Below the pieces are notes generated by a model. It made no database searches. It saw nothing but the letters and a program-made list of their open reading frames with translations, and was not told where the DNA came from. The translations under genes were made by a program, and so were the position numbers. Positions 1 to 57,312 of a DNA stretch of 57,312 bases are shown here, piece after piece. Source of the stretch: a virus (taxonomy: Duplodnaviria > Caudoviricetes). Numbering within the stretch: position 1 is the stretch's first letter; each line of letters begins with the position of its first letter. The stretch lies in the IMG/VR virus record IMGVR_UViG_3300022725_000257, positions 1 to 57,312 of that record. One strand, 5' to 3'.

Positions 1-122
1 ATAACGTGGTAGCGTATAACGGGCGCAGAGATTATGAGTGAATTAAAGACTGAAAATATCGAACTAACTGAAACCGAAAACAACGGCAAGTCTGCGTCCG
101 CAGTTGATACGCATTGTTATAG
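1..122. other. attC-like hairpin H (also at 57184..57307)
   Basis: TAAC-gtggta-GCGTAT-AAC-GGGCGCAGA ... TCTGCGTCC-gca-GTT-G-ATACGC-att-GTTATA; ATG at 34 lies in the loop. Confidence 0.85.
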
Positions 123-127
123 CAACG
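1..127. repeat. Terminal direct repeat, copy 1 (identical to 57186..57312); indicates a circular contig
   Basis: 127 nt identical at both ends; length equals a common assembler k-mer, so likely an assembly overlap. Confidence 0.95.
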
Positions 128-576
128 GGGTGCAAAAGGAGCTTATTGAGTTGTGCCACGATGATTTGCTTGAACCGGCAGTTAAACTTCTGAAGCGAAG
201 TGGAAAAATGTGGAAGTGTAGCAATGTGTTTTGCGATTTGGCGACCGCTGCCAGTGAGCAACCTGACGCATTTGGAATTGGCAGCGGGTTCACTTCTTTA
301 GTGGAAGTCAAAGTAACACGATCAGATTTTCATGCTGGCAAAAAAAAGTTTTTCCGCCAACATCCTGAATGGGGGATGGGAAATTACAGATTTTACCTTT
401 GCCCAGAAGGGTTGATAAAGCCGGATGAAATTCCTGAAAATTGGGGATTGGCGTATTGGACTGAAAAAAAAGCAAATGTAATTGTGAAACCCGACTGGCA
501 GGAAAGCCACCAAAAACGAGAAATAGCTTTTGTGAACAGCGTACTCAGACGTATTAATGCTGACGAGTTGCTATAA
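34..576 (+). CDS. PD-(D/E)XK nuclease-like protein (MmcB-like); cassette gene
   Basis: Motif EQPDAFG...LVEVKVTRSDF...GNYRFYLCP. Confidence 0.65.
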   Translation: MSELKTENIELTETENNGKSASAVDTHCYSNGVQKELIELCHDDLLEPAVKLLKRSGKMWKCSNVFCDLATAASEQPDAFGIGSGFTSLVEVKVTRSDFHAGKKKFFRQHPEWGMGNYRFYLCPEGLIKPDEIPENWGLAYWTEKKANVIVKPDWQESHQKREIAFVNSVLRRINADELL

Positions 577-692
577 CGGATCGGCGTTTAAGCGGCGCTG
601 AAATTAAATAACAACTAAAAATCAGAAATAGAATTATGAGTCAGATTACAGAAAAGGACGCGGCAGCGTCCGCCTTGAAACGCTTGTTAACC
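571..692. other. attC-like hairpin I
   Basis: TAAC-ggatcg-GCGTTT-AAGCGG-CGCTG ... CAGCG-T-CCGC-c-TT-G-AAACGC-tt-GTTA; ATG at 636 in the loop. Confidence 0.85.
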
Positions 693-902
693 GCCCGGTG
701 GTATTTACTGGAACATCCGTGGTGCCACAGTAGTCAAGCTGGAACAGCAATATTGGCGGGAAATCCTGACCCACACCTGGGCACTTTTGTTGCAGATACG
801 GAAATGATGATGGATGATTGTGATTTTGAAGATGAAAATCAGCCGAGATCTATTGCTCAGCATATTGTTGACCTACATAATGCAAGCATAGAGGGCGGTT
901 AA
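636..902 (+). CDS. Hypothetical protein; cassette gene
   Basis: 88-aa ORF; stop is the TAA of the closing TAAC. Confidence 0.75.
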   Translation: MSQITEKDAAASALKRLLTARWYLLEHPWCHSSQAGTAILAGNPDPHLGTFVADTEMMMDDCDFEDENQPRSIAQHIVDLHNASIEGG

Positions 903-2307: not shown

Positions 2308-2437
2308 GGGTAACGTTGCTGCAATTAAGCGGCGGCGTTAATCAGGCCCGTTGGACTATGGAAACCGTTAATCTAATATTTTAATTGAGACTGTAATAAG
2401 GACGGCCTTGCCGTCCGACTTAAATTGCTTGTTATAT
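2308..2437. other. attC-like hairpin J
   Basis: TAAC-gttgct-GCAATT-AAG-CGG-CGGC ... GCCG-T-CCG-A-CTT-A-AATTGC-tt-GTTA; first 26 nt identical to site C (55385). Confidence 0.85.
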
Positions 2438-2774
2438 GCCGATTGACTATAGCGAATACCCGGAAAATTGGAAAGAGATAAGCGAGTACATTCGTTTTGA
2501 GCGTGCTGGTAACCGATGCGAAAGTTGCGGAGCTGAAAATGGAAAGCCGCACCCTGTTACTGGTAGTAAGGTTGTTTTGACAGTAGCACATATTCGACAT
2601 GAAAAATCGGATGTGAGGTATAACCCTGATGCATATGATCCTGACGATGAGGAAAATAATTTAGTGGCAGAATGCCAAAGATGTCATCTTACAAGGGATG
2701 CAAAGTTGCACGCTCGAAACCGTAAATACGGTCGAAAGCATAACCGTAAAGAACAACTGCGCTTAGGCATATAA
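2436..2774 (+). CDS. HNH-like endonuclease; cassette gene
   Basis: YPENW...RAGNRCESC...LTVAH...NLVAECQRCH. Confidence 0.75.
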   Translation: MPIDYSEYPENWKEISEYIRFERAGNRCESCGAENGKPHPVTGSKVVLTVAHIRHEKSDVRYNPDAYDPDDEENNLVAECQRCHLTRDAKLHARNRKYGRKHNRKEQLRLGI

Positions 2775-2889
2775 CGTGGGAGGCGTAAGCGGTCAGGCAG
2801 AATTATGAATAACGAAAAAGCAAATACTATGAATAAGCAAGAAACTGTAACCGGACAAGAAGCCTGTCCGCTTGACGCCTTTGTTATAG
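2769..2889. other. attC-like hairpin K
   Basis: TAAC-gtggg-AGGCGT-AAGCGG-t-CAGGC ... GCCTG-T-CCGCTT-G-ACGCCT-tt-GTTA; ATG at 2805 in the loop. Confidence 0.85.
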
Positions 2890-3524
2890 CGCAAAGGGAG
2901 GCGCTCGAAGCATTGCGGGAAATGCCCGATGATTGCTGTGATATTTTTACAGACCCGCCGTACAATGTTGGAAAAGATTATGGTGTTTGGGACGATTCAA
3001 TGCCCGATCAAGAATATGAACGGTGGATAAGTGATGTTCTGACTGAATGCAAAAGGGTTGCCGTTAATATGGTTGTTTACGTTCCTAAAAAATGGAATTT
3101 ACTTTACTGGAATGTTCTTGGTGATTCATTTCAGGAAATAATACTCCCATTTAGACCGGCCGGTGCAATACGGTATGGGTATTCAAATCAGTTCAATAAG
3201 CTACTTACAAATGCGAGACCGAAAAGGGAAAAGCCGGTACTCAACGTTTGGGATAATATGCAACAGCCGGGGCTTGGATTCTTTTTTAGAGAGGATACAT
3301 TAGGCAACCCCGGCTACACATCTGAGGCAATTACACGAAGGGCATTGGAACAGCTTTTGAGCCATGAATTTATTTATGACCCGTTTATGGGTGTTGGAAC
3401 TACTGCCGTTGCCGCTGAGAAAGCCGGAAAGAAATGGGCAGGAACTGAGCTTAATCCTGAATTTATTGAAAAAGCATGGACACGAATACATGAATACAGG
3501 AACCAACTTGAACTTGCGCTATAA
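2805..3524 (+). CDS. N6-adenine/N4-cytosine DNA methyltransferase (beta order); cassette gene
   Basis: FTDPPY (motif IV) precedes DPFMGVGTT (motif I). Confidence 0.9.
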   Translation: MNNEKANTMNKQETVTGQEACPLDAFVIAQREALEALREMPDDCCDIFTDPPYNVGKDYGVWDDSMPDQEYERWISDVLTECKRVAVNMVVYVPKKWNLLYWNVLGDSFQEIILPFRPAGAIRYGYSNQFNKLLTNARPKREKPVLNVWDNMQQPGLGFFFREDTLGNPGYTSEAITRRALEQLLSHEFIYDPFMGVGTTAVAAEKAGKKWAGTELNPEFIEKAWTRIHEYRNQLELAL

Positions 3525-3643
3525 CGGTTTAGCGTTTGTGCGGCGCTTTAATAAAGTTAATTAGAATAACAAAATTTATAATCCAATGATTAAGCAAAAA
3601 ATAGAACAAGAAAAAGCGTCCGATACGAAACGCATTGTTATGC
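3519..3643. other. attC-like hairpin L
   Basis: TAAC-ggttta-GCGTTT-GTG-CGG-CGCTTT ... AAAGCG-T-CCG-a-TAC-G-AAACGC-att-GTTA; ATG at 3586 in the loop. Confidence 0.85.
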
Positions 3644-3843
3644 AACCGATTACAGTATGGGAAAAGTTTAGTAAAAAGAAACAAAAGTATGAGCATAACC
3701 ATATTGAAGATGGACACCTTACCGGAGATACACCCATTGCAAGAACTGAGGAGCAGAAAAAAGAATGGGATAATACATATTGGCGAAAAAAGTTTGGTTA
3801 CCTGAAGGATGGAAAAGTAGTTGAAACTGAAATAGCTTATTAG
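3586..3843 (+). CDS. Hypothetical protein; cassette gene
   Basis: 85-aa ORF between GTTATGCAACC and GGTTGCATAAC, starting in the hairpin loop. Confidence 0.7.
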   Translation: MIKQKIEQEKASDTKRIVMQPITVWEKFSKKKQKYEHNHIEDGHLTGDTPIARTEEQKKEWDNTYWRKKFGYLKDGKVVETEIAY

Positions 3844-3846
3844 GTT

Positions 3847-3932
3847 GCATAACAAAAGTTTCTGTTGCAAGCCGGACAAGGTGTGGACAACCTTCATGCG
3901 TTTAGCTTGTCAGCAGGAAACTAAGGTTAGAA
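3847..3932. other. attC-like hairpin M
   Basis: TAAC-aaa-AGTTT-CTGTTG-CAAGC ... GCTTG-T-CAGCAG-G-AAACT-aag-GTTAG; extra T and G on the right arm. Confidence 0.75.
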
Positions 3933-3940
3933 AAATTAAC

Positions 3941-4420
3941 ATGAAAATAATATTTTTAGATATTGATGGTGTATTAAATTCTAACGCTTGGTTTAAAAGT
4001 GAAGAATATAATATAAAAGCAAAAAATATGTCTTTTCCTGATACACATCTGGATAAAAAATGTATTTTTAATTTAAATTATTTGTGCAATTTATCTGGTG
4101 CGGATATCGTGATTAGTTCTACTTGGCGTGAATTTGATTATTGTGCCTCAGCTCTGAGGAGAAATGGTGTTACTGGTAATATAATAGGCACTACACCATG
4201 TTTAAGAAAAAAGCTTGAAAACGGTTTATATATAGGCAAAACCCGAGGGGAAGAAATTCAGGCTTGGTTAGATAATAACGGTTACGAATTCTATGTAATA
4301 ATAGATGACTGTTCTGATATGCTTAGATCACAAAAAAAATATTTCGTCCAGATAAATGGAACAGTAGGTTTAACTAAAAATAATGTTTTACAAGCTCTTA
4401 AAATTTTAAATATTGAATAA
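3941..4420 (+). CDS. HAD-superfamily phosphatase (Swiss-Army-knife RNA-repair HAD type)
   Basis: MKIIFLDIDGVL, IVISSTWR, RGEEI, YVIIDD; ATG 3941 preferred. Confidence 0.85.
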   Translation: MKIIFLDIDGVLNSNAWFKSEEYNIKAKNMSFPDTHLDKKCIFNLNYLCNLSGADIVISSTWREFDYCASALRRNGVTGNIIGTTPCLRKKLENGLYIGKTRGEEIQAWLDNNGYEFYVIIDDCSDMLRSQKKYFVQINGTVGLTKNNVLQALKILNIE

Positions 4421-4425
4421 TTGAT

Positions 4426-4569
4426 ATGCTATATTTTTTTGTAGGTTTTTTGGTGGGTTTTATAACATCCATGTTAGGGCCTAAATTTATTAGATTTTTA
4501 ATATATAAATCACCCAATGACTTGTTAGTTAGTAAAGCTATTAAAAGAGTTGTTGAACACCAAAATTAA
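4426..4569 (+). CDS. Small membrane peptide (47 aa, missing from the ORF track)
   Basis: MLYFFVGFLVGFITSMLGPKF..., starts 5 nt after the upstream stop. Confidence 0.5.
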   Translation: MLYFFVGFLVGFITSMLGPKFIRFLIYKSPNDLLVSKAIKRVVEHQN

Positions 4570-4581
4570 AGATCTTATAAG

Positions 4582-4674
4582 CAGTTGCATCGGGGCATCG
4601 AGGAAGCGGGTCCCATCGGTGGCATACAGCGTCTTACGAGGCGGGACTAGGTGTGCTAAACCCTGATGTGATTG
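4582..4674 (+). ncRNA. Candidate structured RNA / long hairpin between convergent genes
   Basis: CAGTTGCATCGGGG pairs with CCCTGATGTGATTG using 4 G-U pairs; inner GGTCCC/GGGACT stem; GC-rich in an AT-rich context. Confidence 0.4.
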
Positions 4675-4678
4675 ATTA

Positions 4679-5338
4679 TTAATTTAAGTTTCTCTTTGAT
4701 CTGTTTCTTAATATATCATTAATTTCATCAGCAGTATAAACACTATTTCCTAATGTGTGTATTTTTTCTGTTACATTAGTGGCTTCATTTTTACCAATAA
4801 TTCCTTTACGCACAGCATCACTTATTTGATCTGTTATGTGTTTTGCCCACTTCTCTAATCTGTTTGATGACATTTTCCCATATACAATCATACTTTCCCG
4901 GGCTTCATCACTGTTATGCGGTGTTCCTTCCATATATAATCGTAATGCATAAGCTGAAACTATCAACCAGGATTCATTCATTCTTTCATACCGGTTGCCA
5001 TTAATTGGTTCAAAGGAATCACATGCGCTTGCAAGTGCATCCGCTAAATGCTCAATGAGCATAGCATTTGTTGGGGCAATCTTTTTTACATACACTAAAT
5101 ACTTTATCTGATTAAGCATCAGATCATAAAGAACCTCTTGATCTTCTTCAGGGATCTCAATTTTTCCTTGATCATCTACATCATGATGCTCTGTATAAAC
5201 AGGCTTACCAACACGTTTATAAAAATCGAGTGATTTTTGCTTTGATATCTTTTCATTATAAAAGCTCAAAGCAAGCGATGTTGAAGCAATTGTTATAACC
5301 AATAGTAGGATACATAAAATTAATATAGGTGTAGTCAT
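4679..5338 (-). CDS. Hypothetical protein with N-terminal membrane anchor
   Basis: 219 aa; hydrophobic N-terminus. Confidence 0.75.
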   Translation of the reverse strand: MTTPILILCILLLVITIASTSLALSFYNEKISKQKSLDFYKRVGKPVYTEHHDVDDQGKIEIPEEDQEVLYDLMLNQIKYLVYVKKIAPTNAMLIEHLADALASACDSFEPINGNRYERMNESWLIVSAYALRLYMEGTPHNSDEARESMIVYGKMSSNRLEKWAKHITDQISDAVRKGIIGKNEATNVTEKIHTLGNSVYTADEINDILRNRSKRNLN

Positions 5339-5364: not shown

Positions 5365-6792
5365 TTAAAATGGCTGATCGTCATCGTCCAAAGGAAGATT
5401 ATGTGGCATGTTCTGTGTACCTACAGGTCGTAAGGATGGTTTTCTATCATCTCTGCCCGGGTTTTGGGTACGCCATTCTGCATAATGTGAAATAAAATCC
5501 ATTTTAAATGTCCCGAGCATTCCATTCCTGTTTTTTGCGATATCAATAAATCCAATACCAGTTGTCGATTGCCCTTTGTATTCATCGTGGCCAAAAAGTT
5601 CCGGGCGGTTTAGAAATATAACACAATCAGCATCCTGTTCCAATGTACCACTCTCTCTTAGATCATCCAGTTTTGGTTGAGCGCCGGGCCGTTTAAGACA
5701 TTCCCTTGATAATTGTGAGCAGGCAATAACCGGGGTGTTGGTTTCTTTAGCCAAAGCTTTAAGGCCTCTTGATATACTGGATATCTCTTGCTCTCTGTTG
5801 CCTTCTTTATAGCCACTCATTAACTGCAAATAATCAACAAAAAGCATATCATAGCCTTGTGTTACTTTTGCTTTATATTTAGCGGCTAATTCATGTATCC
5901 CTATTGCAGGGGTGTCTTCTATGTATAAATCAGAATGGTATAACTTCTCGCTTGCCTTCATCAGATGATCCATATCATCCTTATTTATAGATCCTGATCT
6001 TATCTTAGTGAAATTTACACGACTTTCAAGAGCCATTTGTCTAAGTATTATGTCCCTATTTACCATTTCACCATTCCATACGAAGGGCCGGCGCTTAAAA
6101 TCACTTTTAAGGGATGCTGCATAAAAAGCGTTCTTTATAATGAACGCCGATTTACCAACGCCAGGTCTTGCCCCAATAATATAAAGACTGCCATCCTGAT
6201 AACCGTTGGTGTATTTATCTAATGGAGTTCCGGTTGGGGCGCCAGAAAGCCCGGGGTTTTCCTTGCGATACTCAATATATTCAAGAGCCTGATATATAAT
6301 ATCTTTACTATATCCACCTGTTTCATTATAAAAATCTGTTCCAAGTTTTGATGCTAATGAATTTAGTTCCCCAATAAGTTCCCGGCTATCCGAAGATTCA
6401 CTGTAGGCTTTATTGGCCACCTCTGTAGTTAATAAAATTAGATCTCTCTTTGCCTTTTTATCTTTGAGTATATCAATATAATCTAACGCAACTCGTTCCC
6501 CTACTCCGTGATCGGCAGCAATTTGATAAATTGATTGCTCACCTCCAGCTTTTTCAAGTGTCTGATTTTTTCTAAGCTGCTCAATGATTAAATTTGTATC
6601 AACTTTTTTATTGTTGTTATACAGATCTAATATTGCTTTGTATATAACCCTGTGTTGCGGGGAGTAAAAAACTTCTATATTTTGCTTTAACTCTTGTATA
6701 CATATATCAAGCATGTCTGGCATAAACATCATGCTTGATAATAACTCTACTTCAATTTCTGTTGCCTGCGGCGGTATCTTTGCGTTGTCCAT
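5365..6792 (-). CDS. dnaB: Replicative DNA helicase, DnaB family
   Basis: IPPQ N-terminus, Walker A GARPGVGKS, FVDYLQL, CSQLSR, LRESGTLEQDAD, AKNRNG. Confidence 0.97.
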   Translation of the reverse strand: MDNAKIPPQATEIEVELLSSMMFMPDMLDICIQELKQNIEVFYSPQHRVIYKAILDLYNNNKKVDTNLIIEQLRKNQTLEKAGGEQSIYQIAADHGVGERVALDYIDILKDKKAKRDLILLTTEVANKAYSESSDSRELIGELNSLASKLGTDFYNETGGYSKDIIYQALEYIEYRKENPGLSGAPTGTPLDKYTNGYQDGSLYIIGARPGVGKSAFIIKNAFYAASLKSDFKRRPFVWNGEMVNRDIILRQMALESRVNFTKIRSGSINKDDMDHLMKASEKLYHSDLYIEDTPAIGIHELAAKYKAKVTQGYDMLFVDYLQLMSGYKEGNREQEISSISRGLKALAKETNTPVIACSQLSRECLKRPGAQPKLDDLRESGTLEQDADCVIFLNRPELFGHDEYKGQSTTGIGFIDIAKNRNGMLGTFKMDFISHYAEWRTQNPGRDDRKPSLRPVGTQNMPHNLPLDDDDQPF

Positions 6793-6794
6793 AT

Positions 6795-7793
6795 CTATGT
6801 TCTAAAACTTGGTAAAAATAATTCTTTCCCTTCTACAACTTTCGATTCTCTCCAAATATGTTCTTCGGGATCTAATCCTCTCTCTTTACAAACTTCTTTA
6901 TATTTATCTTGCCTCAACCAGCCTGCTTTTAAATAATCAGAAACTGTATTCATTTTATTCTGAGTTTCATTAAAGGCATACCACCGGTCAACCCATTTAT
7001 CTATAGCCTCCATTTTTTTTCGGCCGTAATAGGTATTCCAATCCCTGCGATGGGCTTCTTTTATCATATTGCTTCTTGCTCGGACTTCTAATCCGCCAAG
7101 TAACTCCCTGCCTGTATAAACATTTAATGCTCTTTTAATGTCTTTCTTTTTTTTAGGTGTTAACCTGGTATTTGCATCACTTAGTTTGTTAAAAGAATCA
7201 ACAAAGCTTTTATAATCAATCTTCCCGCCAGAATATTTTTCTTCAGATGATGCAACATAAGGTTCAATATCAGTGTTGCCAATGCCCTCATTATCTTCAT
7301 GATTGTCAACATTGACATCCTTATTGTTAACATTTTTACTTTGTTTGTTAACAATAGTTACATCAAAACTTACAGAGCCAAGCTCTTTTTCCACATAATT
7401 ATCAACATCAATAAGTAAATATCTGTGATCGAGTGTTATAGATTTTCTGCGCTTGCAGGCCGCGATGAAGCTCTTTTGTATATCTTTGCTTGTTAATATG
7501 CCATAAGTTTTAAACATCTTTTTATCAAATACATTAGCATAAAGCGCGTGCTCAATAAGATTGTTGATAACTTCCTTACTCACCGGATACTCCGGCCGGT
7601 TGTATTCAGCTATATATAGCATAATAAAGTCATCATCAACAGCAAGGTAATAGCCTTCCTCAAAAAACATTTTTTCGAGAATTGTCCAGTAAAAACCAGC
7701 CCCAGGCAAACCCGTTAAAGAACTATAAATTTTTAACGGTTTAGTTTGCATTGCGGTAGATGAGTGAATAAAAAAATCAAGACCTTTATTCAT
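6795..7793 (-). CDS. Phage replication initiator (DUF4373/Lin1244-like N-terminus)
   Basis: GLDFF...GAGFYWTILEKMFFEEGYY...GILTSKDIQ; directly upstream of dnaB; internal iteron-like repeats. Confidence 0.75.
   Translation of the reverse strand: MNKGLDFFIHSSTAMQTKPLKIYSSLTGLPGAGFYWTILEKMFFEEGYYLAVDDDFIMLYIAEYNRPEYPVSKEVINNLIEHALYANVFDKKMFKTYGILTSKDIQKSFIAACKRRKSITLDHRYLLIDVDNYVEKELGSVSFDVTIVNKQSKNVNNKDVNVDNHEDNEGIGNTDIEPYVASSEEKYSGGKIDYKSFVDSFNKLSDANTRLTPKKKKDIKRALNVYTGRELLGGLEVRARSNMIKEAHRRDWNTYYGRKKMEAIDKWVDRWYAFNETQNKMNTVSDYLKAGWLRQDKYKEVCKERGLDPEEHIWRESKVVEGKELFLPSFRT
7304..7353. repeat. Iteron-like triplet TGT(T/C)AACA with 21-bp period inside the initiator gene
   Basis: TGTCAACA 7304, TGTTAACA 7325, TGTTAACA 7346. 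Confidence 0.7.
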
Positions 7794-8055
7794 TATGCCG
7801 GTATTTACGAAGTTCTATAATCTTCTCTCCTCCGTATTCTTTGGGTCTGTGGTACTCAATAAAGCCTTGGTTAATTAACTTATATAAATGATCCCTAAGC
7901 CGGCGCTTTCCCATTTGGCTATCTTTAGCTAAAAAACTTTGTGATTTTTGTATGCGGTTCTTTTTGAAAGTCCAAAGATACAAAAAGGTAGATATAACTG
8001 GGGGAGAAAGGCCGAGCGCATTACAGTCTCGTATAATGTCCTGTACTTGTTTCAT
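7786..8055 (-). CDS. Winged-helix DNA-binding protein
   Basis: SQSFLAKDSQMGKRRLRDHLYKLINQGFIE resembles a wHTH. Confidence 0.65.
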   Translation of the reverse strand: MKQVQDIIRDCNALGLSPPVISTFLYLWTFKKNRIQKSQSFLAKDSQMGKRRLRDHLYKLINQGFIEYHRPKEYGGEKIIELRKYRHNE

Positions 8056-8098
8056 TGATATAGTTGTTTTGTTATGGTTAACATATCTGGATCAGGTA

Positions 8099-8968
8099 TC
8101 ACTTTTTTTTTACAGACTCTGGAACATTGTTAATAAGCTTGCCGTATTTTTGCTCCATTTTATTAAGTATTTTTTGTGCTGCACCCACTGATAAATTTCT
8201 TTGAACAATACGTATTTCACCTGTTTCTTCATCGGTTACTTCTTTGTATATAAACGGTTGCCATTCATCGGCTTCATTGGGATTTTGCAGGTGCATAAAA
8301 TACGCTTCAATATCTTCTAACATCTTTTTTGATGCTGGTTTTTTTTCAGCCACAACAGATTGTTTTTCAACTTGTGTTTTATTTTCAACCCCCAAGTGTT
8401 TTTCTTCTTCATGCAAGGCCTCGCTTGGCAGAACCGGCTCTTTCCAATAAAACTTTATGTATTCAGGCTTTCCGTTTTGTTTTTTTACTTTGCTTTTAAA
8501 CTGGTATGAATTCCATCCAGGCTGCCAACTGTTGCTAACCTCGACCCCAATTTGTGGTACAAGTTTAAGATACCTTCCAATACCTATTTTACTAAGCACC
8601 CTTTTCTCGGCAAAGGCTAAAGCACTTTCGAGCGCTGTTAAGGTGAACTGTCCTCGTTCCCTGGTATCAAGAGTAGCCCCCTCACTTTTTTCTATCCAAT
8701 CAGATTCTTTATTCTGTCGAATTTTTATTGTAAACCTAACCTTTTCTCCCGGTAAAAGCTCAAATTGATTTTGCCAATTAAACGGGCCAATTACGCTATC
8801 AAGGCGATGCTCTGCTGATTCTTTTTTAATATAAGGTGTTGCAAATGCCTTAATTACATAGCCATTTTTACTGTTGTAGTCATAGGCGCTTACAATAACC
8901 CATTCTATATCATCAACTTTAAATTTTTCGGATAGCTTTTCGTAAATTTCTTTTTGATCTTTATTCAT
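8099..8968 (-). CDS. Rad52/Rad22-like single-strand annealing protein
   Basis: LSEKF..DDIEW...PYI...RLDSVIGPFNWQ...KR...GIGRYL. Confidence 0.75.
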   Translation of the reverse strand: MNKDQKEIYEKLSEKFKVDDIEWVIVSAYDYNSKNGYVIKAFATPYIKKESAEHRLDSVIGPFNWQNQFELLPGEKVRFTIKIRQNKESDWIEKSEGATLDTRERGQFTLTALESALAFAEKRVLSKIGIGRYLKLVPQIGVEVSNSWQPGWNSYQFKSKVKKQNGKPEYIKFYWKEPVLPSEALHEEEKHLGVENKTQVEKQSVVAEKKPASKKMLEDIEAYFMHLQNPNEADEWQPFIYKEVTDEETGEIRIVQRNLSVGAAQKILNKMEQKYGKLINNVPESVKKK

Positions 8969-8991
8969 AGGTATATGTCATAAATTTGTTA

Positions 8992-9026
8992 TTGACAATA
9001 ATAAGACAATGCCATATTATTGTCAA
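8992..9026. promoter_or_regulatory. Symmetric bidirectional sigma70-type promoter
   Basis: TTGACA-17nt-TATTAT on both strands within one inverted repeat, between divergent genes. Confidence 0.8.
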
Positions 9027-9040
9027 AAAATTATAGCAAT

Positions 9041-9313
9041 ATGGATAATATTTATTTTCAAACAATTATTCTATCAATTAAAAAAGATGACAAGCCCGCT
9101 GAAGATTATGCATTTATTGGACTTTCTGCGTTCACAAAAAATGAATGGGATAAAGTATTAAAAGAAAATAAAACAATAACCGATGTGTTATCTGAAACGG
9201 ACGCTATCAAGTTAGGTGTGCCAGTACCAATAGAAAAGGCTATTACGAACCCTGAACACAAAGATTTGGTAGATATGATAAGAGATGAGTTAATGAATAA
9301 AAACAATATATAA
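9041..9313 (+). CDS. Hypothetical protein
   Basis: ATG 9041 downstream of the promoter; TAATG overlap with the MTase. Confidence 0.7.
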   Translation: MDNIYFQTIILSIKKDDKPAEDYAFIGLSAFTKNEWDKVLKENKTITDVLSETDAIKLGVPVPIEKAITNPEHKDLVDMIRDELMNKNNI

Positions 9314-10590
9314 TGGATTATTTTTCAGTTTGTAGTGGTATAGGGGGTTTTGAATGTGGCATAGAGTGTGCGGTAAAAGGATGGGAGTGTGTTGGTTTTT
9401 CTGAGATTGATAAATACGCAACTGCTATATATAATTTTCATTATCCTAAACATAAAAATTATGGAGACATCACAAAAATCACTATTCCCGAATTACCCGA
9501 TTTCAACATTCTCGTTGGAGGATTTCCGTGTCAATCTTTTAGCATTGCTGGCAAAAGACAAGGATTTAAGGACACAAGAGGCACTATATTTTTTAACATC
9601 GCACAAATTTGTAAGGTTAAACAACCTGAATGGGTTCTACTCGAAAACGTTAAAGGTTTACTTAGTCATGAATCTGGAAAGACTATTGCAAGGATCTACC
9701 AAATTCTTACCGAGCTTGGTTATACCGTTGGTTGGGAGGTGGTTAATAGTTGCCACTTCGGAGTCCCACAAAACCGAGAGCGAATCTTTATTGTCGGACA
9801 TCTTAGAGCCGCCGGAGGGCGTGCCGGAGAAATATTACCTATCAGAAAAAAAGATAATAGGCCTCCTAAAAGGGCAATCAAAACCCCAATTGCTCGATGC
9901 TTCACAGCAGGGGGGAATTCAGGGGGATTGCACAGCTCGATGACGTTAATTCAAAATAAATTCACGGCAAAGGGTAATGCTTATTGTCTAACACCAAACT
10001 ATAACAAGGGGCTTTGTTCAATAAACAAAAACAAACATACACATGTTGTAGAAAAAAAACAGGTTAAATCCGGCACATGGCGCACACACAAAGATGGTGA
10101 AGGCTTTAGAGAGCTTGAAAACCCCAATATTTCTCCATGTATTCCGGCGCGGGCACGGGAAGATGGAAGCGGTCAACCAGTGATTATGAGCCATTACGGG
10201 CATAAAGACAAACCACCTAAAGAGCATGATATCGTTCCGACATTAAAAGCCGAATCGCATGGCCATCAACCCATGGTGAAAACCTCTCTAACACCCGACA
10301 GAATAGATAAGCGGCAAAACGGACGAAGACTTAAAGACAATGATGAACCAAGTTTTACGCTTACTTCACAGGATAAGCATGGTGTTCAGCAAGGATTTAA
10401 TATTCGGCGCTTTACGCCTATTGAGTGTGAACGGCTGCAAGGTTTTCTGGACGACTGGACAAAATTCGGAATCATTGATGGTGAAACCATTGAAATGAGC
10501 GATACGCAACGATACAAAACATTAGGTAATGCTGTTACGGTAAATGTTGTAGAAGCGATTATAAAAAAGATAGATGCCGTTGTTAATTAG
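9313..10590 (+). CDS. dcm: DNA (cytosine-5)-methyltransferase
   Basis: CSGIGG, GGFPCQSFS, ENVKG, PQNRERIF, RRFTPIECERLQGF, YKTLGNAV. Confidence 0.95.
   Translation: MDYFSVCSGIGGFECGIECAVKGWECVGFSEIDKYATAIYNFHYPKHKNYGDITKITIPELPDFNILVGGFPCQSFSIAGKRQGFKDTRGTIFFNIAQICKVKQPEWVLLENVKGLLSHESGKTIARIYQILTELGYTVGWEVVNSCHFGVPQNRERIFIVGHLRAAGGRAGEILPIRKKDNRPPKRAIKTPIARCFTAGGNSGGLHSSMTLIQNKFTAKGNAYCLTPNYNKGLCSINKNKHTHVVEKKQVKSGTWRTHKDGEGFRELENPNISPCIPARAREDGSGQPVIMSHYGHKDKPPKEHDIVPTLKAESHGHQPMVKTSLTPDRIDKRQNGRRLKDNDEPSFTLTSQDKHGVQQGFNIRRFTPIECERLQGFLDDWTKFGIIDGETIEMSDTQRYKTLGNAVTVNVVEAIIKKIDAVVN
9461..9943 (+). CDS. Overprinted alternative-frame ORF inside dcm (possible second MTase subunit)
   Basis: 160 aa stop-free with ATTATG start; ends in SLLSDILE...VPEKYYLS, a C5-MTase-associated motif absent from the main frame. 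Confidence 0.55.
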   Translation: METSQKSLFPNYPISTFSLEDFRVNLLALLAKDKDLRTQEALYFLTSHKFVRLNNLNGFYSKTLKVYLVMNLERLLQGSTKFLPSLVIPLVGRWLIVATSESHKTESESLLSDILEPPEGVPEKYYLSEKKIIGLLKGQSKPQLLDASQQGGIQGDCTAR

Positions 10591-11627: not shown

Positions 11628-12083
11628 TTATTGATTTAGTATTTTTATTGTTTTTTCAGCTTTATTTTTATTCAATCCTGTTTCTGGATCACATAGAACT
11701 GTTCTGGTTAACCTGTGCTCGGATGTAATATCGTGATTATCCGTTGTTATAATCACATAACTGTGCAAACTGTATTCATAAGAAAAAATCCAATCATTAA
11801 TAAGCAAAGACCGGGCTGTATTTGACTTACTAACAGCTCCAACTACAGGCGGCTGGATTTCGTTTTTTACAAAGATCCATTTTAAATCTTCTAAGCAGTA
11901 TTCTTTTCTCCAACAGCAAATCACAACTACACCAACCGGGCCTGGAACGCTCTCATCAATATAATTTAGTTGTGAACAAGCTTGTTCGTTGAAATCAAGC
12001 CTGGTTTTTTTACCATCGTTAATATCAACCAAGCATTTTTTGTTTAATAATACACCGTTAATTTCAATAAAAATAATCTTCAT
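11628..12083 (-). CDS. Degenerate HAD-like protein, paralog of 3941..4420
   Basis: MKIIFIEINGVL / ICCWR / YVIITTD / TGL align to the HAD gene, but DxD is replaced by ExN. Confidence 0.7.
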   Translation of the reverse strand: MKIIFIEINGVLLNKKCLVDINDGKKTRLDFNEQACSQLNYIDESVPGPVGVVVICCWRKEYCLEDLKWIFVKNEIQPPVVGAVSKSNTARSLLINDWIFSYEYSLHSYVIITTDNHDITSEHRLTRTVLCDPETGLNKNKAEKTIKILNQ

Positions 12084-15223: not shown

Positions 15224-15363
15224 AGCATTTGCTGTTTGGTTGTTGGGCGCGGTTTGAAATGTGAGCTATTAATTTGCACAATAATTCGTTCAATGTCAAG
15301 TGCTTTTTTTATAATAAAAACAGACAGTTATGTATTACATAACTGTCTATCCGTATTATGTTT
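15221..15363 (-). repeat. ~140-bp terminator+promoter+leader module, copy 1
   Basis: Near-identical to 18127..18264 and 19881..20023; hairpin, TTGACA-17-CAAATT, leader ending at ATG. Confidence 0.9.
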
Positions 15364-18129: not shown

Positions 18130-18264
18130 AGCATTTGCTGTTTGGTTGTTGAGTGCGGTTTGAAATTTGAGCTATTAATTTGCACAATAATTTGTTCAAT
18201 GTCAAGTGCTTTTTTTTATAATAAAAACAGGTAGTTATCATGATAACTACCTTTCTGTATTATG
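18127..18264 (-). repeat. Terminator+promoter+leader module, copy 2
   Basis: Same module; hairpin changed but still paired (AGGTAGTTATCA/TGATAACTACCT). Confidence 0.9.
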
Positions 18265-19883: not shown

Positions 19884-20023
19884 AGCATTTGCTGTTTGGT
19901 TGTTGAGTGCGGTTTGAAATTTGAGCTATTAATTTGCACAATAATTTGTTCAATGTCAAGTGCTTTTTTTATAATAAAAACAGACAGTTATGTATTACAT
20001 AACTGTCTATCCGTATTATGTTT
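19881..20023 (-). repeat. Terminator+promoter+leader module, copy 3
   Basis: Near-identical to copy 1. Confidence 0.9.
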
Positions 20024-21451: not shown

Positions 21452-22488
21452 AGCGTTTGCTGTTTGCGTTAAGGTTTAAAAATGCATCGTAGATGCATCG
21501 CTCGAAACATTGCGTTTGCCGTGTCGAACTGCTTTCAAACTGCAAATTTTTTTGTGCAAAATTCAAGTTAGAAAAATCTAATGGCTTTTTAGAACCAAAG
21601 GTTCTACAGAAACATTATATTGCTGGTGGCATATCGGGTATTGACTCGATATATGTTATTTTTACAAGAAAAATAACATAAATTCTGATTTGCTTTATTC
21701 AGCTTTGCCCTAAGTAGGCTCCATTCCCTTTATTCGCCGATTTCCAAAATTTCTATGAATAGAATTTTTGGACAAAGATTCATTAATCGTGCGATATAGG
21801 CTTGTAATGTGTGTTCCTGCATTATGTGAAATCACTCGATTCACGCCAATTTTGTGCACTTTTGGGCTAATGCCCAAAGAATTGTGCTTCACGTGCATTT
21901 TGGACAAAATTTTATTCAAAAATCAGGCTATACAGCCTTTATTCGCTTCGTACAATTCTATGTCAATGGCAGTATTACTCCAATACAGGCATTCGAAATG
22001 TTGTCAGCGGCATTTGAACAAAATTTTGTATACACAAAATTGTTCATTTCAGAGATTTAAGTCATGTTTTACAAAATTTCGTGCGTGTTTTTACCCTTGA
22101 AATTACGTTGTATAATTTATCTTATGTAAAGTTGAATAGTTTTAGGGGTTTGTTTTTTTATCAATCCCCTCCCCTCCCCTATCGGGATGCTGAAGTGATC
22201 AGGAACCAGTCAACGTGCATGTATGCATTGCGTGCAGTTTGCCCGTGCTTAGCGTGTTGCGTGTGTGCGCATAATGCCGGGGCGGGCGGCGTGCGGGCAC
22301 CCCCCGGGGGCGTTGAGTGCGGCGCGGTTGTTGTTATAATGGTATGCTGGATAGCAATAATATCAGAGTTTCCGTGGACGGGGTGGGGGGTTGTTTATAT
22401 ATGGGTGGGTAAAAATATAATAGAAGACATGATATAAGGAATTTTTCTCAGTGTTTATTACATTATTGCATTAACTAAATACAATATT

Positions 22489-23139
22489 ATGAGTTATAAA
22501 CATTGGTATAAAAAGAGTTCTGTTAACAATAACGACAACTTAAATTCAAAGGAAAAACCCGATAAAACACACCCTACCCGGCTTTCCGATATAAGAGAGG
22601 TTGACCGGCGCAGGCATGAGGTGTTAGATTATTTATTGCTTGGCTACGAAGCTGATTTTATAGCCCACACGTTAGGAGAAAGAAAACAGCTTATAGAAGA
22701 TGATATAAAACATATTATGGAAATTGGTTATAAGGCAAGGGATGAAGATCTTACCGAGGTTCGTGATGAGGTTGTCCGTATGCACCGGTTATCAGCAAGG
22801 GAGGCCCTAAAAGCCTGGCATGATTCTAAAAAGCCTGAAAAGACAATCAAAGTTAAAAATTACGTAGACGAATACGGGAACCCGAAAGAGGAGGTTACTG
22901 AAACCACTAAAACAAATTCCGGGGATTCCAGGCACCTAAAGAATTTTACCGAATCAGCTAAGGAGCTTGGTAAGGTTACCGGCGCTCAGAAGCATAAAGA
23001 ATTAGAGATTAACCAGAAAAATGAGCACAACCAATTAAATATTTTAAATCCTAACACAACCCAGCTACCGGATGCATTGGATAGGTGGACAACACGCCCG
23101 GATAATGATGACACAAAACTTGAAATTGATGAGGATTAG
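22489..23139 (+). CDS. Putative terminase small subunit
   Basis: HTH-like RRRHEVLDYLLLGY...IAHTLG...IEDDIK; first gene of the late arm, upstream of TerL. Confidence 0.55.
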   Translation: MSYKHWYKKSSVNNNDNLNSKEKPDKTHPTRLSDIREVDRRRHEVLDYLLLGYEADFIAHTLGERKQLIEDDIKHIMEIGYKARDEDLTEVRDEVVRMHRLSAREALKAWHDSKKPEKTIKVKNYVDEYGNPKEEVTETTKTNSGDSRHLKNFTESAKELGKVTGAQKHKELEINQKNEHNQLNILNPNTTQLPDALDRWTTRPDNDDTKLEIDED

Positions 23140-23142
23140 ATT

Positions 23143-23784
23143 ATGAATAAAGCATGCCGGCCATTTGAAAAGGAAGAGATAGCATTAATGTTTGAAGGTT
23201 TTAAAACCGAAGAATACGGAAATCGGGACAGAGCAATATTTGCAGTTGGAATATCAACCGGTTTTAGAATAAATGAGATTTTGTCTCTAAGGGTCAAAGA
23301 CGTATATAATGAAATTGGAGATCCATACGATAAAATAAAAGTCCAGAAGCGTAACATGAAAGGCGGGAAGTCTCGGCCACCTAAAAAAATATTCCCGGAA
23401 ACAAAGCTATATTTATCACATTGGTATGATGAACTTATGCGCCGATGGACAGTACACAGATCATCTAAATGCTTCATGTCTGAAAAAGGGGGTGCTATAT
23501 CAGCAGAAACCTTTAGGGTTTGTATTAACAGGGTATGTAAAAAGGTTGGCATAGAGACCAAAGAAATTGGCACCCATTCGATGCGTAAAACTTTTGCCAA
23601 TGCTGTATATGATTATTGGGTAAAACAAGCTAAAGAGGGAAGGCGCATAGAGCCAATGCGGATGGTGCAAATTGAGCTTGCACATTCAAACATAGATGAC
23701 ACCTACCGGTATTTGAATTTTAAGCTCGAAGAAAAGGGAGATGATGTTTTTCATGAATATAATATGCTCGCAGGCCTATACTAA
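23143..23784 (+). CDS. Tyrosine recombinase, catalytic domain only
   Basis: RDRA...TGFRINEIL, MKGGK, THSMRKTF, LAHS, TYRYL. Confidence 0.92.
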   Translation: MNKACRPFEKEEIALMFEGFKTEEYGNRDRAIFAVGISTGFRINEILSLRVKDVYNEIGDPYDKIKVQKRNMKGGKSRPPKKIFPETKLYLSHWYDELMRRWTVHRSSKCFMSEKGGAISAETFRVCINRVCKKVGIETKEIGTHSMRKTFANAVYDYWVKQAKEGRRIEPMRMVQIELAHSNIDDTYRYLNFKLEEKGDDVFHEYNMLAGLY

Positions 23785-23853
23785 AAATTCAAATTAAATT
23801 CTGTAAAAGTTTGCAAAAAACATAAATTCTAATGTTATCTTAAAGCGCCGGAA

Positions 23854-24101: not shown

Positions 24102-24194
24102 ACTAAAGCTGGTTAGAAATTGGTTTTCAAAAGAGGAAAAATTCCTGAGAGTGAAATATTGCTTTTATAGTTGATAATCTTTAGAATGATACTC

Positions 24195-54550: not shown

Positions 54551-54589
54551 GAGACGGCTCTGTCGTCTGACTTAAATTGCTTGTTATGC
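54551..54589. other. attC-like half-site A (right arm only)
   Basis: GTCGTCTGACTTAAATTGCTTGTTAT matches the right arms of sites C and J; no left arm upstream. Confidence 0.75.
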
Positions 54590-54768: not shown

Positions 54769-54863
54769 GCATAAGGTATTTGCAAATAAGCTGCCCGCGA
54801 AAGTCGTAGGTTGCACAAAATAATAATAACTACAAGCAGGTCAGGTTGATACGATTGTTATGC
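54769..54863. other. attC-like hairpin B (decayed: TAAG instead of TAAC)
   Basis: Homologous to site E (TGCAAATAAGCTGCC...CAAGCAGGTCAG), outer stem mismatched. Confidence 0.7.
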
Positions 54864-55387
54864 CTCCCAATTACAAAGATGTATTTTTTATAATTGATTA
54901 CGAAACAACAGGTGTTGGAAAAAATGATGTACCAATAGAGGTTGGTATTATTGTAACAGACTCTGAATGGACTGAACTTGACAGAATGGAGTCTTTAATC
55001 TATTCGGATTATTCAATTCAATTGCCCCCGGACTACTGGGATAAGGCAAAAGAATTTCACGGTATTGATCAGGAAACAATTAAGCATAAGGGAATATTTG
55101 CAAGCCGTGTAGCAAAGAAAATACATGATTTAGCAAAGAAGTGGAATCCAGTTTGTGGTCGTGTAATTCTTCTTTCTGACAATATTCAGTTTGAATGGAA
55201 ACACACACAATGGCTTTTTAACTACATTGATTTAGACGTGACAGACATATTCCATTACTGTGGGTGGGATACTTCATTACTATCATTGTTTACTTCATTC
55301 AAAGACCCATCTGGTACAGATCACAGGGCGCTATCAGATGTTGAGGGACTTTTGAATGAATTAAGGAGAGTAGCTAAGGAGGGATAA
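54860..55387 (+). CDS. DEDDh 3'-5' exonuclease; cassette gene
   Basis: IDYETTG...IEVG...HGI...DT...HRALSD. Confidence 0.85.
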   Translation: MPPNYKDVFFIIDYETTGVGKNDVPIEVGIIVTDSEWTELDRMESLIYSDYSIQLPPDYWDKAKEFHGIDQETIKHKGIFASRVAKKIHDLAKKWNPVCGRVILLSDNIQFEWKHTQWLFNYIDLDVTDIFHYCGWDTSLLSLFTSFKDPSGTDHRALSDVEGLLNELRRVAKEG

Positions 55388-55474
55388 CGTTGCTGCAATT
55401 AAGCGGCGGCACTAACTGAACAGAAATCGAAACTAAGGGCGGCTTTGCCGCCTGACTTAAATTGCTTGTTATAT
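55382..55474. other. attC-like hairpin C
   Basis: Same arms as site J with a shorter loop. Confidence 0.85.
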
Positions 55475-55476
55475 AT

Positions 55477-55671
55477 ATGACGACAAAGGAATTTTTACTT
55501 GAAAAAGAACTGAACTGGACTCGAATAGAGGAAATGCAGGAAGAATTGAAACGGAATCAAAAAACGATTGATGATCTTATAAAGCGTAATGATGATCTAT
55601 ATGCAAAAATGCAGATAATAGCCCAAGACATGCAGAAAAAAGCTGAGGAGCTTGATAAGGTATATGTATAA
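55477..55671 (+). CDS. Small coiled-coil protein; cassette gene
   Basis: ATG just after GTTATATAT; stop is the TAA of TAAC. Confidence 0.7.
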   Translation: MTTKEFLLEKELNWTRIEEMQEELKRNQKTIDDLIKRNDDLYAKMQIIAQDMQKKAEELDKVYV

Positions 55672-55843
55672 CGGGGAGCTTCAACCAATAAAGAATTAAA
55701 AATGAGCAAAAAACTTAGAGAACAATTTGTGAAAGAAACCGGCAAATCTCCTGCTGATTGGGAGATGGACAGCCCTGTATTTCACCCAAAATATGTTGAA
55801 TGGTTAGAAGCAAAAGCCGGTCAGCACGAACCGATTGTTATGC
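55666..55843. other. attC-like site D (right arm intact, left arm not complementary)
   Basis: GCCGG-T-CAGCAC-G-AACCG-att-GTTAT right arm lies inside CDS 55702..56004. Confidence 0.6.
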
Positions 55844-56004
55844 CACAAAATGAAAGTGAGAAACAGGCCTTTTTTATTGTTACTGTTATGAGAAATATGA
55901 ATAAAGATGAGGTTGAAATGCTTTGCGAAAATCTGCTTGCGAGATATGATATTAATTTACCACGATTGATACAGTGTGTAGAGCAAATTAAGGATGTGCT
56001 ATAA
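55702..56004 (+). CDS. Hypothetical two-part protein spanning an attC-like arm; cassette gene
   Basis: N-part ...YVEWLE, linker AGQHEPIVMP encoded by the arm. Confidence 0.7.
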   Translation: MSKKLREQFVKETGKSPADWEMDSPVFHPKYVEWLEAKAGQHEPIVMPQNESEKQAFFIVTVMRNMNKDEVEMLCENLLARYDINLPRLIQCVEQIKDVL

Positions 56005-56094
56005 CGAAATTGCAAATAAGCTGCCTGCGAAAATCGCAACAGCTTCATATTAAACACTAACTGCAAGCAGGTCAGCTTGATTTGCTTGTTATAC
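55999..56094. other. attC-like hairpin E (most canonical)
   Basis: TATAAC-gaaatt-GCAAAT-AAGCTG-CCTGC ... GCAGG-T-CAGCTT-G-ATTTGC-tt-GTTATA. Confidence 0.9.
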
Positions 56095-56107
56095 TGCGAG
56101 GTAGATT

Positions 56108-56437
56108 ATGGGACTTGATTTTGGACATACCTGCCCTGATATAGACAGGGGAATCGAAGCATTTAAGGATGATTTAAAAATGTTTTTGAGCGAAGTAATA
56201 GATGATGTTTGTCCTTTACTCGAAGGTGAAGTGAAAGATGATCTTGTGAAAAGTTACGCTGATGATATTTATAACGAGTTTGGGGGTAATTTTGAGAATG
56301 TCAGAAAAACCAATGAAGAAATGCGAAGTGAAGCGGACAGGCAAATTGGTGAATTACAGGATGAGGTTGGTGAATTACGATCAGAAATAGAAGACCTTAG
56401 ATACCAACTGGAAAATGAAAGGGCATTAGCAGTGTAA
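56108..56437 (+). CDS. Coiled-coil hypothetical protein; cassette gene
   Basis: HTCPDID...ENVRKTNEEMR; stop is the TAA of TAAC. Confidence 0.75.
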   Translation: MGLDFGHTCPDIDRGIEAFKDDLKMFLSEVIDDVCPLLEGEVKDDLVKSYADDIYNEFGGNFENVRKTNEEMRSEADRQIGELQDEVGELRSEIEDLRYQLENERALAV

Positions 56438-56552
56438 CGTGTGAGGCGTAAGCGGCAAGCAGATTAGAAATTTATGGAAGCTAAAAAACTAAATAAGATG
56501 AATGAAACGAAAACAAAGGCTGAAGCTTGTCCGCTTGATGCGCTTGTTATAC
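56432..56552. other. attC-like hairpin F
   Basis: TAAC-gtgtga-GGCGT-AAGCGG-CAAGC ... GCTTG-T-CCGCTT-G-ATGC..tt-GTTA; same family as K; ATG 56474 in the loop. Confidence 0.85.
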
Positions 56553-56827
56553 AACCGGAGATGATTATGAGTAATGGACAAGATAAAGGTAATAACACAT
56601 ATACAGATTACAGTTTTCAAGGTCAATCACCGTTTGCAGAGAATGCGGTATCATTGCTTTTGGCTGACAATTCAAGTGTAAAATATAAAGGCGAAGAATT
56701 TGAGGCAATACAGTTTCATTATGAGTGTCAAGAAACAGAGCAGTGTTTTACTACAGATGAAATTGATGAAATTAACATTAGAATAGTACTCGCTTCTTAT
56801 AGAAATAGAATGCTTTTAAAGCAATGA
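56474..56827 (+). CDS. Hypothetical protein resembling the N-terminal zinc-ribbon of MqsA/YgiT-type antitoxins; cassette gene
   Basis: SPF...YKGEEF....HYECQETEQCFTTDEIDEIN....YR. Confidence 0.5.
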   Translation: MEAKKLNKMNETKTKAEACPLDALVIQPEMIMSNGQDKGNNTYTDYSFQGQSPFAENAVSLLLADNSSVKYKGEEFEAIQFHYECQETEQCFTTDEIDEINIRIVLASYRNRMLLKQ

Positions 56828-56831: not shown

Positions 56832-56961
56832 GTATAACGGATGGAGCATAACCGGCAGGCATTACAGGCAATGAATTTGAAACAACTAATAACTGAACTA
56901 TAAATCAGCAATAGCTGATGCCGGACAGCTTGCCTGTCCGCTGTTGATGCTATTGTTATAA
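56832..56961. other. attC-like hairpin G
   Basis: TAAC-ggatgg-AGCAT-AAC-CGG-CAGGCA ... TGCCTG-T-CCG-ct-GTT-G-ATGCT-att-GTTA. Confidence 0.85.
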
Positions 56962-56978
56962 ACACACGGAGCGGTAAA

Positions 56979-57173: not shown

Positions 57174-57185
57174 CGGAGTGTGTTT

Positions 57186-57312
57186 ATAACGTGGTAGCGT
57201 ATAACGGGCGCAGAGATTATGAGTGAATTAAAGACTGAAAATATCGAACTAACTGAAACCGAAAACAACGGCAAGTCTGCGTCCGCAGTTGATACGCATT
57301 GTTATAGCAACG
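57186..57312. repeat. Terminal direct repeat, copy 2
   Basis: Identical to 1..127. Confidence 0.95.

Follow-up and report, generated by a model that had tools for sequence, protein, structure and literature searches.

In this work, we focus on an array of attC-like hairpins in a phage genome, and particularly on the start codons that lie in the loops of these hairpins. The DNA analysed, called the window below, is the IMG/VR virus record IMGVR_UViG_3300022725_000257 at its full length of 57,312 nucleotides (nt). Direct terminal repeats bound this virus contig, the final 127 bases of which are identical to the first 127, and its completeness is rated 100%, so we take it to be a whole phage genome of ~57.2 kb. 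Its GC content is 39.6%. The terminase gene and the long structural open reading frames (ORFs) lie on the plus strand between 24 and 52 kb, the replication genes lie on the minus strand between 4.7 and 21 kb, and small plus-strand ORFs run from ~54.3 kb over the circular junction to ~4.4 kb. The cassette array spans this last region from 54769, across the junction, to 3933, and it consists of imperfect hairpins of 87-179 nt that lie between small ORFs, open with TAACG and close with TTGTTA. In our reading, these sites are related to the attC sites of integrons, and about half of them probably embed a short leader ORF that is translated into, or up to, the gene that follows.

The site at 2769..2890 (S4), which like all the sites and ORFs of the array described here is on the plus strand, illustrates this arrangement. 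This attC-like hairpin scores 83.4 bits, with a DNA fold of -17.5 kcal/mol (z -3.44), and its cores are a left TAAC at 2772-2775 and a right GTTA at 2883-2886. The TAA of the left core is the stop codon of the ORF at 2436-2774. Two ATGs, at 2805 and 2829, are found in the loop, and the first of them opens the gene of an N6_N4 DNA methyltransferase (2805..3524; 239 amino acids (aa); Pfam), residues 1-26 of which are encoded by the loop and the right arm.

Hairpin structure and kinship with attC

The hairpins are real. Ten window sites were aligned with three sites from other viral contigs, and a structure of 23 pairs was written for this alignment, in which 84.8% of the cells are paired, vs 34-47% when the partners are slid. 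Both-sided changes occur in 14 of the 23 pairs, and the covariation score was reached by none of 500 shuffles. The covariance model built from these 13 sites, with two window sites (S8 and S10) outside the training set, returns 12 distinct sites in the window, all on the plus strand and all within the array; elsewhere in the window or on the minus strand, its best match has an E of 0.43 or worse. Repeat finding combined with a crude fold filter overlooked most of the sites, owing to their bulges, and a search of IMG/VR with the exact 19-nt motif of the right arm returned one unrelated AT-rich contig (L001) without a hairpin. A scan against Rfam gave no family.

These structures have the anatomy of an attC. 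The stem is imperfect, being interrupted by an unpaired spacer at its centre and by extrahelical bases; it is kept by covariation and capped by a variable terminal loop, and the G and T bulges of the phage sites align to those of the bottom strand of the aadA1 attC. TAAC and GTTA are invariant in all 13 aligned sites. Compared with the attC consensus RYYYAAC ... GTTRRRY, the cores of the window (TATAAC and GTTAT[AG]) have a T at the expected R, and those of the related viral sites are GCCTAAC and GTTAGGC. The span from TAAC to GTTA is 80-172 nt in the window, the mis-parsed S8 being excluded, and 51-163 nt in the relatives. The purine content is uninformative (0.576 in the sites and 0.575 in the ORF bodies of the array).

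An initial annotation of this DNA had taken the hairpins for recombination sites, and this is supported by a model, R1, for which only the coding strand of the phage sites was used. On plasmid R100, R1 scores the aadA1 attC at 42.3 bits on the strand opposite to aadA1 and at 11.3 bits on the coding strand; on R46, it matches four attCs out of four on the strand opposite their genes; and in phage TJE1, it matches two attCs (40.5 and 35.4 bits), again opposite the genes. All five class 1 attCs are detected (42.3, 31.5, 23, 21 and 18.5 bits), and E values range from 1e-8 to 5e-3 on classical and experimentally validated attCs. In phage P12002L and in MW202573, R1 returned no site, a result that says nothing on their published sites.

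Judged by this model, the phage genes lie on the side of the attC bottom (recombinogenic) strand, unlike those of classical integrons. In a 2024 paper (PMC11511950), attCs are placed at the 3' end of the cassette, where they mostly overlap the stop codon; at none of the 12 window sites does the site lie at the 3' end of its ORF with the gene opposite the bottom strand. The coding strand also has bottom-strand polarity in the viral records G001, G002, G004 and G005 and in contig L037. For 60 further viral sites, an ORF-length rule that is too noisy for a firm share gave 17 with the gene on the bottom strand, 10 classical ones and 33 ambiguous or unparsed. On contig L016 (record G003), sites of the same family at 5990-10420 have their genes on the opposite strand, which is the classical polarity.

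The array lacks the arrangement of a complete integron, in which an intI gene and an attI lie beside the cassettes. With 12 sites within ~6.4 kb and no IntI, it is a cluster of attC sites lacking an integron integrase (CALIN), and any recombination would therefore need an enzyme of the host. The only tyrosine recombinase of the phage is encoded at 23143-23784 (213 aa) and has an Xer-like catalytic domain.

Open reading frames that start in the loops

The six ATGs on which the initial annotation had insisted (34, 636, 2805, 3586, 55702 and 56474) all lie between the TAAC and GTTA cores of a called site, and the ORFs that they open read through the right arm and the core, with the six quoted peptides in their translations. 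All three frames are used, since the G of GTTA falls in codon position 2 in S1, 3 in S2 and 1 in S4, S5, S10 and S12. Nearly the same arm peptide is common to unrelated proteins, as EACPLDAFVI in the 239-aa methyltransferase and as EACPLDALVI in a 117-aa protein. Across the co-oriented sites, the upstream ORF commonly terminates at the TAA of the left core (18 of 29), as had also been proposed, and the downstream gene reads the right core as GTT-Axx in 20 of 29.

S1 (57184..57308, equal to 1-123 through the 127-nt terminal overlap; 86.9 bits) has its loop ATG at 34 and is followed by ORF 34 (34..576; 180 aa), with leader and arm making up residues 1-29 and the family core near H42. The TAA of ORF 34 is contained in the left core of S2 (571..693; 94.5 bits), from the loop of which ORF 636 (636..902; 88 aa; W-x6-W family) starts; its core is read ttG TTA, with TTG 684 as an alternative start. 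Likewise, the left core of S5 (3519..3644; 84.7 bits) contains the TAA of the methyltransferase gene, and the start of ORF 3586 (3586..3843; 85 aa) is ambiguous between the loop ATG 3586 and an in-frame core ATG at 3640. S12 (56432..56553; 101.2 bits) is of the S4 type, with loop ATGs at 56474 and 56498, and it precedes the 117-aa ORF 56474 (56474..56827), which has a downstream ATG at 56567. S10 (55666..55844; 19.9 bits) has a loop of 118 nt that holds ATG 55702, a further in-frame ATG lies in its core at 55840, and the conserved body of ORF 55702 (55702..56004; 100 aa) comes directly after the core. This site is degraded, its left arm being without pairing. In related contigs of runs X2 and X4, the S10 loop (55679) stands behind a different upstream sequence that resembles an intact left arm, and because these contigs have a seemingly intact arm, the window copy seems to have lost its own by deletion.

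To see how often such open frames occur, the sites of the same kind in five other IMG/VR records were added, together with those in two metagenome contigs. The loop test set comprises the 28 sites with a loop of at least 9 nt (11 from the window and 17 from related contigs), six sites having been dropped beforehand for a loop below 9 nt or a mis-parsed or unparsed core. In 14 of the 28, the loop holds an in-frame ATG with no stop before the core and a frame open to the downstream gene. Shuffling the loops only gives 2.63 such sites, and none of 200,000 draws reached 14. In 7 of the 14, the ATG lies 32-39 nt from the TAAC, just behind the left arm. A second pattern scan, based on the right arm only, gave 13 long-loop sites that were read by eye: seven have fused leaders, in two cases before a methyltransferase-like N-terminus; in two, a leader ORF stops at most ten codons past the core, one of these ORFs overlapping the next ATG; and four have none. 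One other viral contig carries a leader twice, with one copy fused to a gene and the other ending in a TAA that overlaps the ATG region of the gene after it. The metagenome contig L053 encodes an ORF 34 homologue that also has an in-frame loop start, and it carries a repeat of ~125 nt (787-912 and 1467-1592) directly upstream of two attC-like left cores.

Few genes of this phage have a Shine-Dalgarno motif, and most have A/T-rich leaders and ATGA-type starts. The start context was scored with a matrix for which 39 genes from elsewhere in the genome, and not from the array, were the training set; true genes reach 2.26 ± 4.2. The loop ATGs 636, 2805, 3586 and 55702 score from 3.3 to 9.7 and the second loop ATG of S4 scores 11.5; ATG 34 (0.86) and ATG 56474 (-0.55) are lower.

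The place at which homology begins bears on the need for a start upstream of the core. In comparisons with homologues that lack hairpins, similarity sets in at the GTTA core, as the initial annotation had predicted; these homologues do not keep the arm peptides, and identical leaders with their arm are found before unrelated bodies, as identical bodies are found behind different leaders. In the case of the methyltransferase, the core encodes residues 27-28, and two site-free viral relatives, the native N-termini of which extend only ~5 residues beyond the aligned part, align from residues 28 and 33. The conserved N-terminal helix before the DPPY motif begins at the core, and the starts available past it are poor: TTG at L37 or ATG 2922 (score -5.1) would remove this helix. 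In the ORF 55702 family, the body that begins directly after the core is common to seven homologues, the leaders of which are mutually unrelated, and six of the seven have Ile at the core in place of Met and lack any Met ahead of the conserved body. The protein P0014 has the 46-residue leader of the window's ORF 55702 on another body, and P0012, P0013 and P0015-P0018 have the ORF 55702 body behind different leaders. A protein-based locus search in IMG/VR for this family found nothing, and tblastn of ORF 55702 against phages gave no match.

To judge from these sequences, an upstream start is needed for methyltransferase 2805 and for six of the seven ORF 55702 homologues; for 34, 636, 3586 and 56474, it is optional or doubtful. 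ORF 636 has 105 homologue clusters, with alignments that start at residues 15-19, the core being at 17-18, and with native N-termini 5-9 residues ahead of W22. Several of these homologues have hydrophilic leaders of ~20 residues that end in LL[AS], and the core TTG could be the start of ORF 636. For ORF 3586, one weak match begins at residue 18.

The remaining sites are as follows. S3 (2308..2438; 77 bits) has stop codons in its loop, and its ORF starts at GTTATATG with ATG 2436; this element at 2431, as well as the two GTTATG at 54583 and 54857, is present as the initial annotation had it. S9 (55382..55475; 57.3 bits) is of the S3 type, with the TAA of an RNase_T-like ORF in its left core and the next ORF starting at 55477, and S13 (56832..56962; 74.6 bits) also has stop codons in its loop and an ORF start at 56979. 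The loop of S11 (55999..56095; 78.5 bits, z -3.98) is non-coding, the ORF ATG lying at 56108, 17 nt past the core. S7 (54551..54588), which the covariance model does not call, is a right arm with its core only; it has GTTATG with ATG 54586 and a promoter-like AT-rich stretch upstream. S8 (54769..54864; 40.2 bits, z -0.03) has TAAG as its left core and an ORF start at GTTATG with ATG 54860, and it is damaged and chimeric, the left arm not matching the right. The last site, S6 (3847..3933; 43.5 bits), precedes a HAD gene that starts at 3941. Between 897 and 2310, five ORFs (636 to 2286) follow each other with no site between them. The TAA stop of ORF 636 falls there within GGTTAACA, and ORF 943 is similar, at its N-terminus, to the leader that P0013 has fused to the ORF 55702 body; this region may hold a decayed site.

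Possible explanations for the leader frames

The explanation that we consider probable is that of an attC-embedded leader ORF, acting by translational coupling or fusion, in phage cassettes of reverse polarity. Each site would be the 5' end of the gene that follows it. The previous gene would commonly end in the TAA of the 5' core, which is also where the crossover is predicted by analogy with the 5'-AA|C of IntI. In about half of the sites, a start codon placed in the variable loop, just behind the left arm, would then open a frame through the right arm and the core. This frame would either enter the cassette gene, giving an N-terminal extension of ~17-46 residues, or, in relatives, stop at the core or a few codons past it, next to the adjoining gene's own start. 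Translation of the leader ORF would open the mRNA hairpin and hand ribosomes to the cassette gene, through fusion or through termination-reinitiation, and the leader peptide would be a by-product. The pattern of the leader ORFs appears to be that of an element that matters through being translated, and not through the sequence that it encodes.

Several observations weigh against this explanation, and they are taken here with the alternatives on which they bear. The loop ATGs might be incidental, with the real starts at the core (GTTATG, or the TTG in TTGTTA) or downstream, and with open frames that reflect the fixed arm sequence and the purine-rich loops. The strongest point for this idea is the neutral evolution of the leader. 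Contig L037 encodes a copy of ORF 34 that is 93% identical at the protein level (tblastn), together with its site. Between the window and L037, the body of ORF 34 has 45 synonymous and 11 non-synonymous changes (7, 2 and 54 by codon position). In the leader, over 26 codons, 3 changes are synonymous and 6 non-synonymous (5, 2 and 3), with no third-position bias; such neutral changes would also fit no translation whatever. In addition, the core of L037 has a 2-nt deletion and its leader ORF stops at the core TAG. Since this frameshift goes with a body under purifying selection, the fusion is dispensable in L037. The coding linker of the initial annotation is therefore not a selected one, as the arm peptide evolves neutrally and as, in relatives, the leader ORF stops at the core or just past it. 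Site S6 points the same way: its loop ATG 3896 is one of the 14 and its frame is open throughout, but its start-context score is -7.8, and the frame is judged to be due to chance because the HAD domain begins at residue 3 of the 3941 start. It shows that a whole-site open frame can arise by chance. In-frame alternative starts at or after the core exist for 636 (TTG), for 3586 and 55702 (core ATGs at 3640 and 55840) and for 56474. For the last one, protein P0010, which is 94% identical to ORF 56474, lacks the arm peptide and differs in its N-terminal part as far as the conserved I-M-S-N; ATG 56567 is conserved in P0010 and scores 6.7, and a related contig diverges right after it (56567-56569), which together make this downstream start the likelier one. 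As for ORF 34, 78 of 80 homologue loci in metagenomes have no site, and most matches begin at about residue 40. The claim of loop starts is thus to be narrowed: at 56474 it gives way to ATG 56567 as the likelier functional start, and at 3586, 55702 and 636 it has to share the ground with the in-frame core ATG or, for the last, with the core TTG. As a general account, we nevertheless regard incidental ATGs as quite unlikely, given the 14 open sites out of 28 where loop shuffles give 2.63, the recurrent distance to the TAAC with good start context, the absence, in the methyltransferase and in six ORF 55702 homologues, of any start from the core up to the conserved residues, and the unfused leader ORFs, which either stop at the core or overlap with the start that follows.

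Another matter is which cassette the leader belongs to. According to Nivina et al. (PMC5027507), IntI cleaves within the 5'-AAC-3' of R' of the bottom strand; the coding strand here being the classical bottom strand, the crossover of the phage sites is predicted by analogy at the left core, TAA|C. This agrees with the core-TAA termination of the upstream genes and with the block that L037 shares with the window from 57185 to 578, which is bounded by the left cores of S1 and S2 (499/579 nt) and has unrelated DNA on both flanks. L037 has S1 with its unique loop and ORF 34, and neither the upstream gene nor the downstream site is shared. From this block and the bottom-strand gene side, a site and the gene that follows it look like one cassette, and the leader module was probably not donated by the preceding cassette, as the initial annotation had suggested. 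If the crossover were instead at the right core (G|TTA), the loop, start and arm would belong to the preceding cassette and be donated to the next ORF, which we think unlikely. The leader/body junctions of the ORF 55702 family lie at the right core, with the leader on another body in P0014 and the same body behind other leaders in P0012, P0013 and P0015-P0018, and they do not fit a single left-core crossover. The same right arm also precedes different ORFs (S3, S7 and S9; L037 1-41), and the half site S7, made of a right arm only, lies by its promoter-like stretch at the head of the array. Contig breakpoints in related arrays, from four DNA runs of one study, are found at both cores (those at 55472, 56092 and 56551 would suit the right one), in short contigs that leave the cassettes unphased; where cassettes share site types, such breaks at either end of a site would arise in any case.

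The hairpins could also be RNA-level elements, such as processing sites, attenuators or terminators, with homologous recombination at the arms shuffling the genes. In line with this, no integron integrase was found in the phage, its recombinase scoring 28.3 bits vs a TIGR02249 cut-off of 265. It also weighs against the explanation by leader ORFs in cassettes that no tyrosine recombinase was found in four of the five other site-bearing viral records, and that the fifth (G003) has only a partial match, below the cut-off, at the contig end. The chimeric S8 and the truncated S10 suggest breakage inside the sites, and the mismatches (26 G·T vs 17 A·C) single out neither strand as the folding one. 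Such an origin is nonetheless very improbable, because a model made from phage sites alone detects classical and validated attCs, because the cores, the unpaired spacer, the G and T bulges and the variable loop match attC anatomy, and because, in Qi et al. (PMC9892861), five of six tested phage attCs were recombined by IntI1. The attC match also makes hairpins of the IS200/IS605 or repetitive extragenic palindromic (REP) type, or an involvement of the small tyrosine recombinase that the phage itself encodes, less likely.

Returning to the attC-embedded leader ORF, we would more tentatively see in these sites a distinct phage class of reverse-polarity cassettes, in which the bottom-strand attC may serve as the initiation region and first codons of the gene, and the cassette may end at its own TAA and crossover. 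If so, each cassette would be a self-contained translation unit, expressible wherever it landed in a phage operon, with a hairpin opened by the ribosomes that come from the preceding gene.

Genome context and known systems

Elsewhere in the phage, the recombinase gene has a peculiar neighbourhood. A 216-aa ORF that matches no family stops 3 nt ahead of the catalytic-domain-only recombinase, and the two together (22489-23784) have the length of a full integrase with a TAG between them. Upstream of this ORF (22489-23139), the stretch at 22150-22400 is G/C-rich, with runs of C and G and without a long ORF, which is atypical for the genome. Just past the recombinase gene, at 23830-24110, five to six GTTAACA-type words lie in inverted repeats (23873-23903 and 23994-24024) and are followed by a short tandem run of ATAGAATAT; this may be a recombinase-binding or packaging region. 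In the replication module, a palindromic element of ~49 nt occurs three times between minus-strand genes (15311-15359, 18218-18263 and 19971-20019), with arms that are 83-89% complementary and with identical copies at 15.3 kb and 20.0 kb. This module also holds one of the two genes with a HAD_SAK_2 domain (11628-12083), the other being the last gene of the array (3941-4420). Shortly after the array, ~100 nt of GC-rich sequence (4570-4670) separate the convergent genes 4426-4569 (plus strand) and 4679-5338 (minus strand) and may be a structured RNA or a terminator. A tRNA search found none, a blastn search with the array in 50,697 phage records gave no match, and protein-based locus searches in IMG/VR with ORF 52960-53535 returned nothing.

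Conserved regulatory stem-loops that flank small accessory genes and mark shuffling breakpoints are also known from T4-type phages. There, the Promoter-early stem-loop (PeSL) cassettes are modules of a promoter and a terminator that are exchanged by homologous recombination. PeSLs are not known to have attC anatomy or to be coding through their stem.

A close likeness is with the CALINs of virulent phages, for which Qi et al. (2023; PMC9892861) report methyltransferase cassettes and attCs recombined by IntI1. As in those arrays (PMC9892861), the sites have inverted xxTAAC and GTTAxx cores, an unpaired spacer, a bulged G and T and a variable loop, and they lie between small genes that include N6_N4 methyltransferases, with no integrase gene. 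The text of that paper contains neither 'start codon' nor 'translat', its supplementary tables being outside this term search. Unlike in TJE1, R100 and R46, the genes here are on the bottom-strand side and the site precedes the gene, and the right core is mostly GTTAT[AG] and not GTTRRRY. Among the papers listed by literature searches, none has a title or abstract on bottom-strand attC genes with loop-embedded starts; supplementary data may bear on CALIN orientation.

In the usual picture of integrons, a gene is followed by its attC, is transcribed from an outside promoter, and has in the hairpin an obstacle to translation. The opposite polarity with a start codon inside the hairpin, if true, would explain how promoterless accessory genes, such as methyltransferases and nucleases, stay translatable after shuffling. 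It would also provide gene callers with a rule for the N-termini of array genes, and viromes with a cassette marker in the arm-derived peptides (e.g. x-P-L-D/E-x-x-V-I/M). These arrays would moreover be a natural test bed for the strand choice of integron integrases.

The leader frames themselves have relatives in integrons. As reviewed in PMC8876359, ORF-11, ORF-17 and ORF-18 in attI1 enhance the translation of cassettes (Hanau-Bercot 2002; Jacquier 2009), and for short ORFs in attC, as well as for ORF-11, the core provides the stop codon and the effect comes from termination-reinitiation or hairpin relief. As in these cases (PMC8876359), the leader ORFs of the phage have their own initiation region inside the site, span the crossover or core, and can take their stop from the core (the TAG in GTTAG, as in L037). 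Unlike the cases described there, which are single, on the top strand and in class 1 integrons, they occur at about every second site and on the bottom-strand side, often fused in frame to the gene. They are also like the known cassette ORFs that take their start and first residues from across a cassette boundary, but the latter arise now and then through an insertion or the loss of an attC, and here the feature is recurrent and built into the site. The attC-embedded leader ORFs proposed for this array would be variations on known themes, those of phage CALINs, of ORF-11 and of the short ORFs of attC sites.

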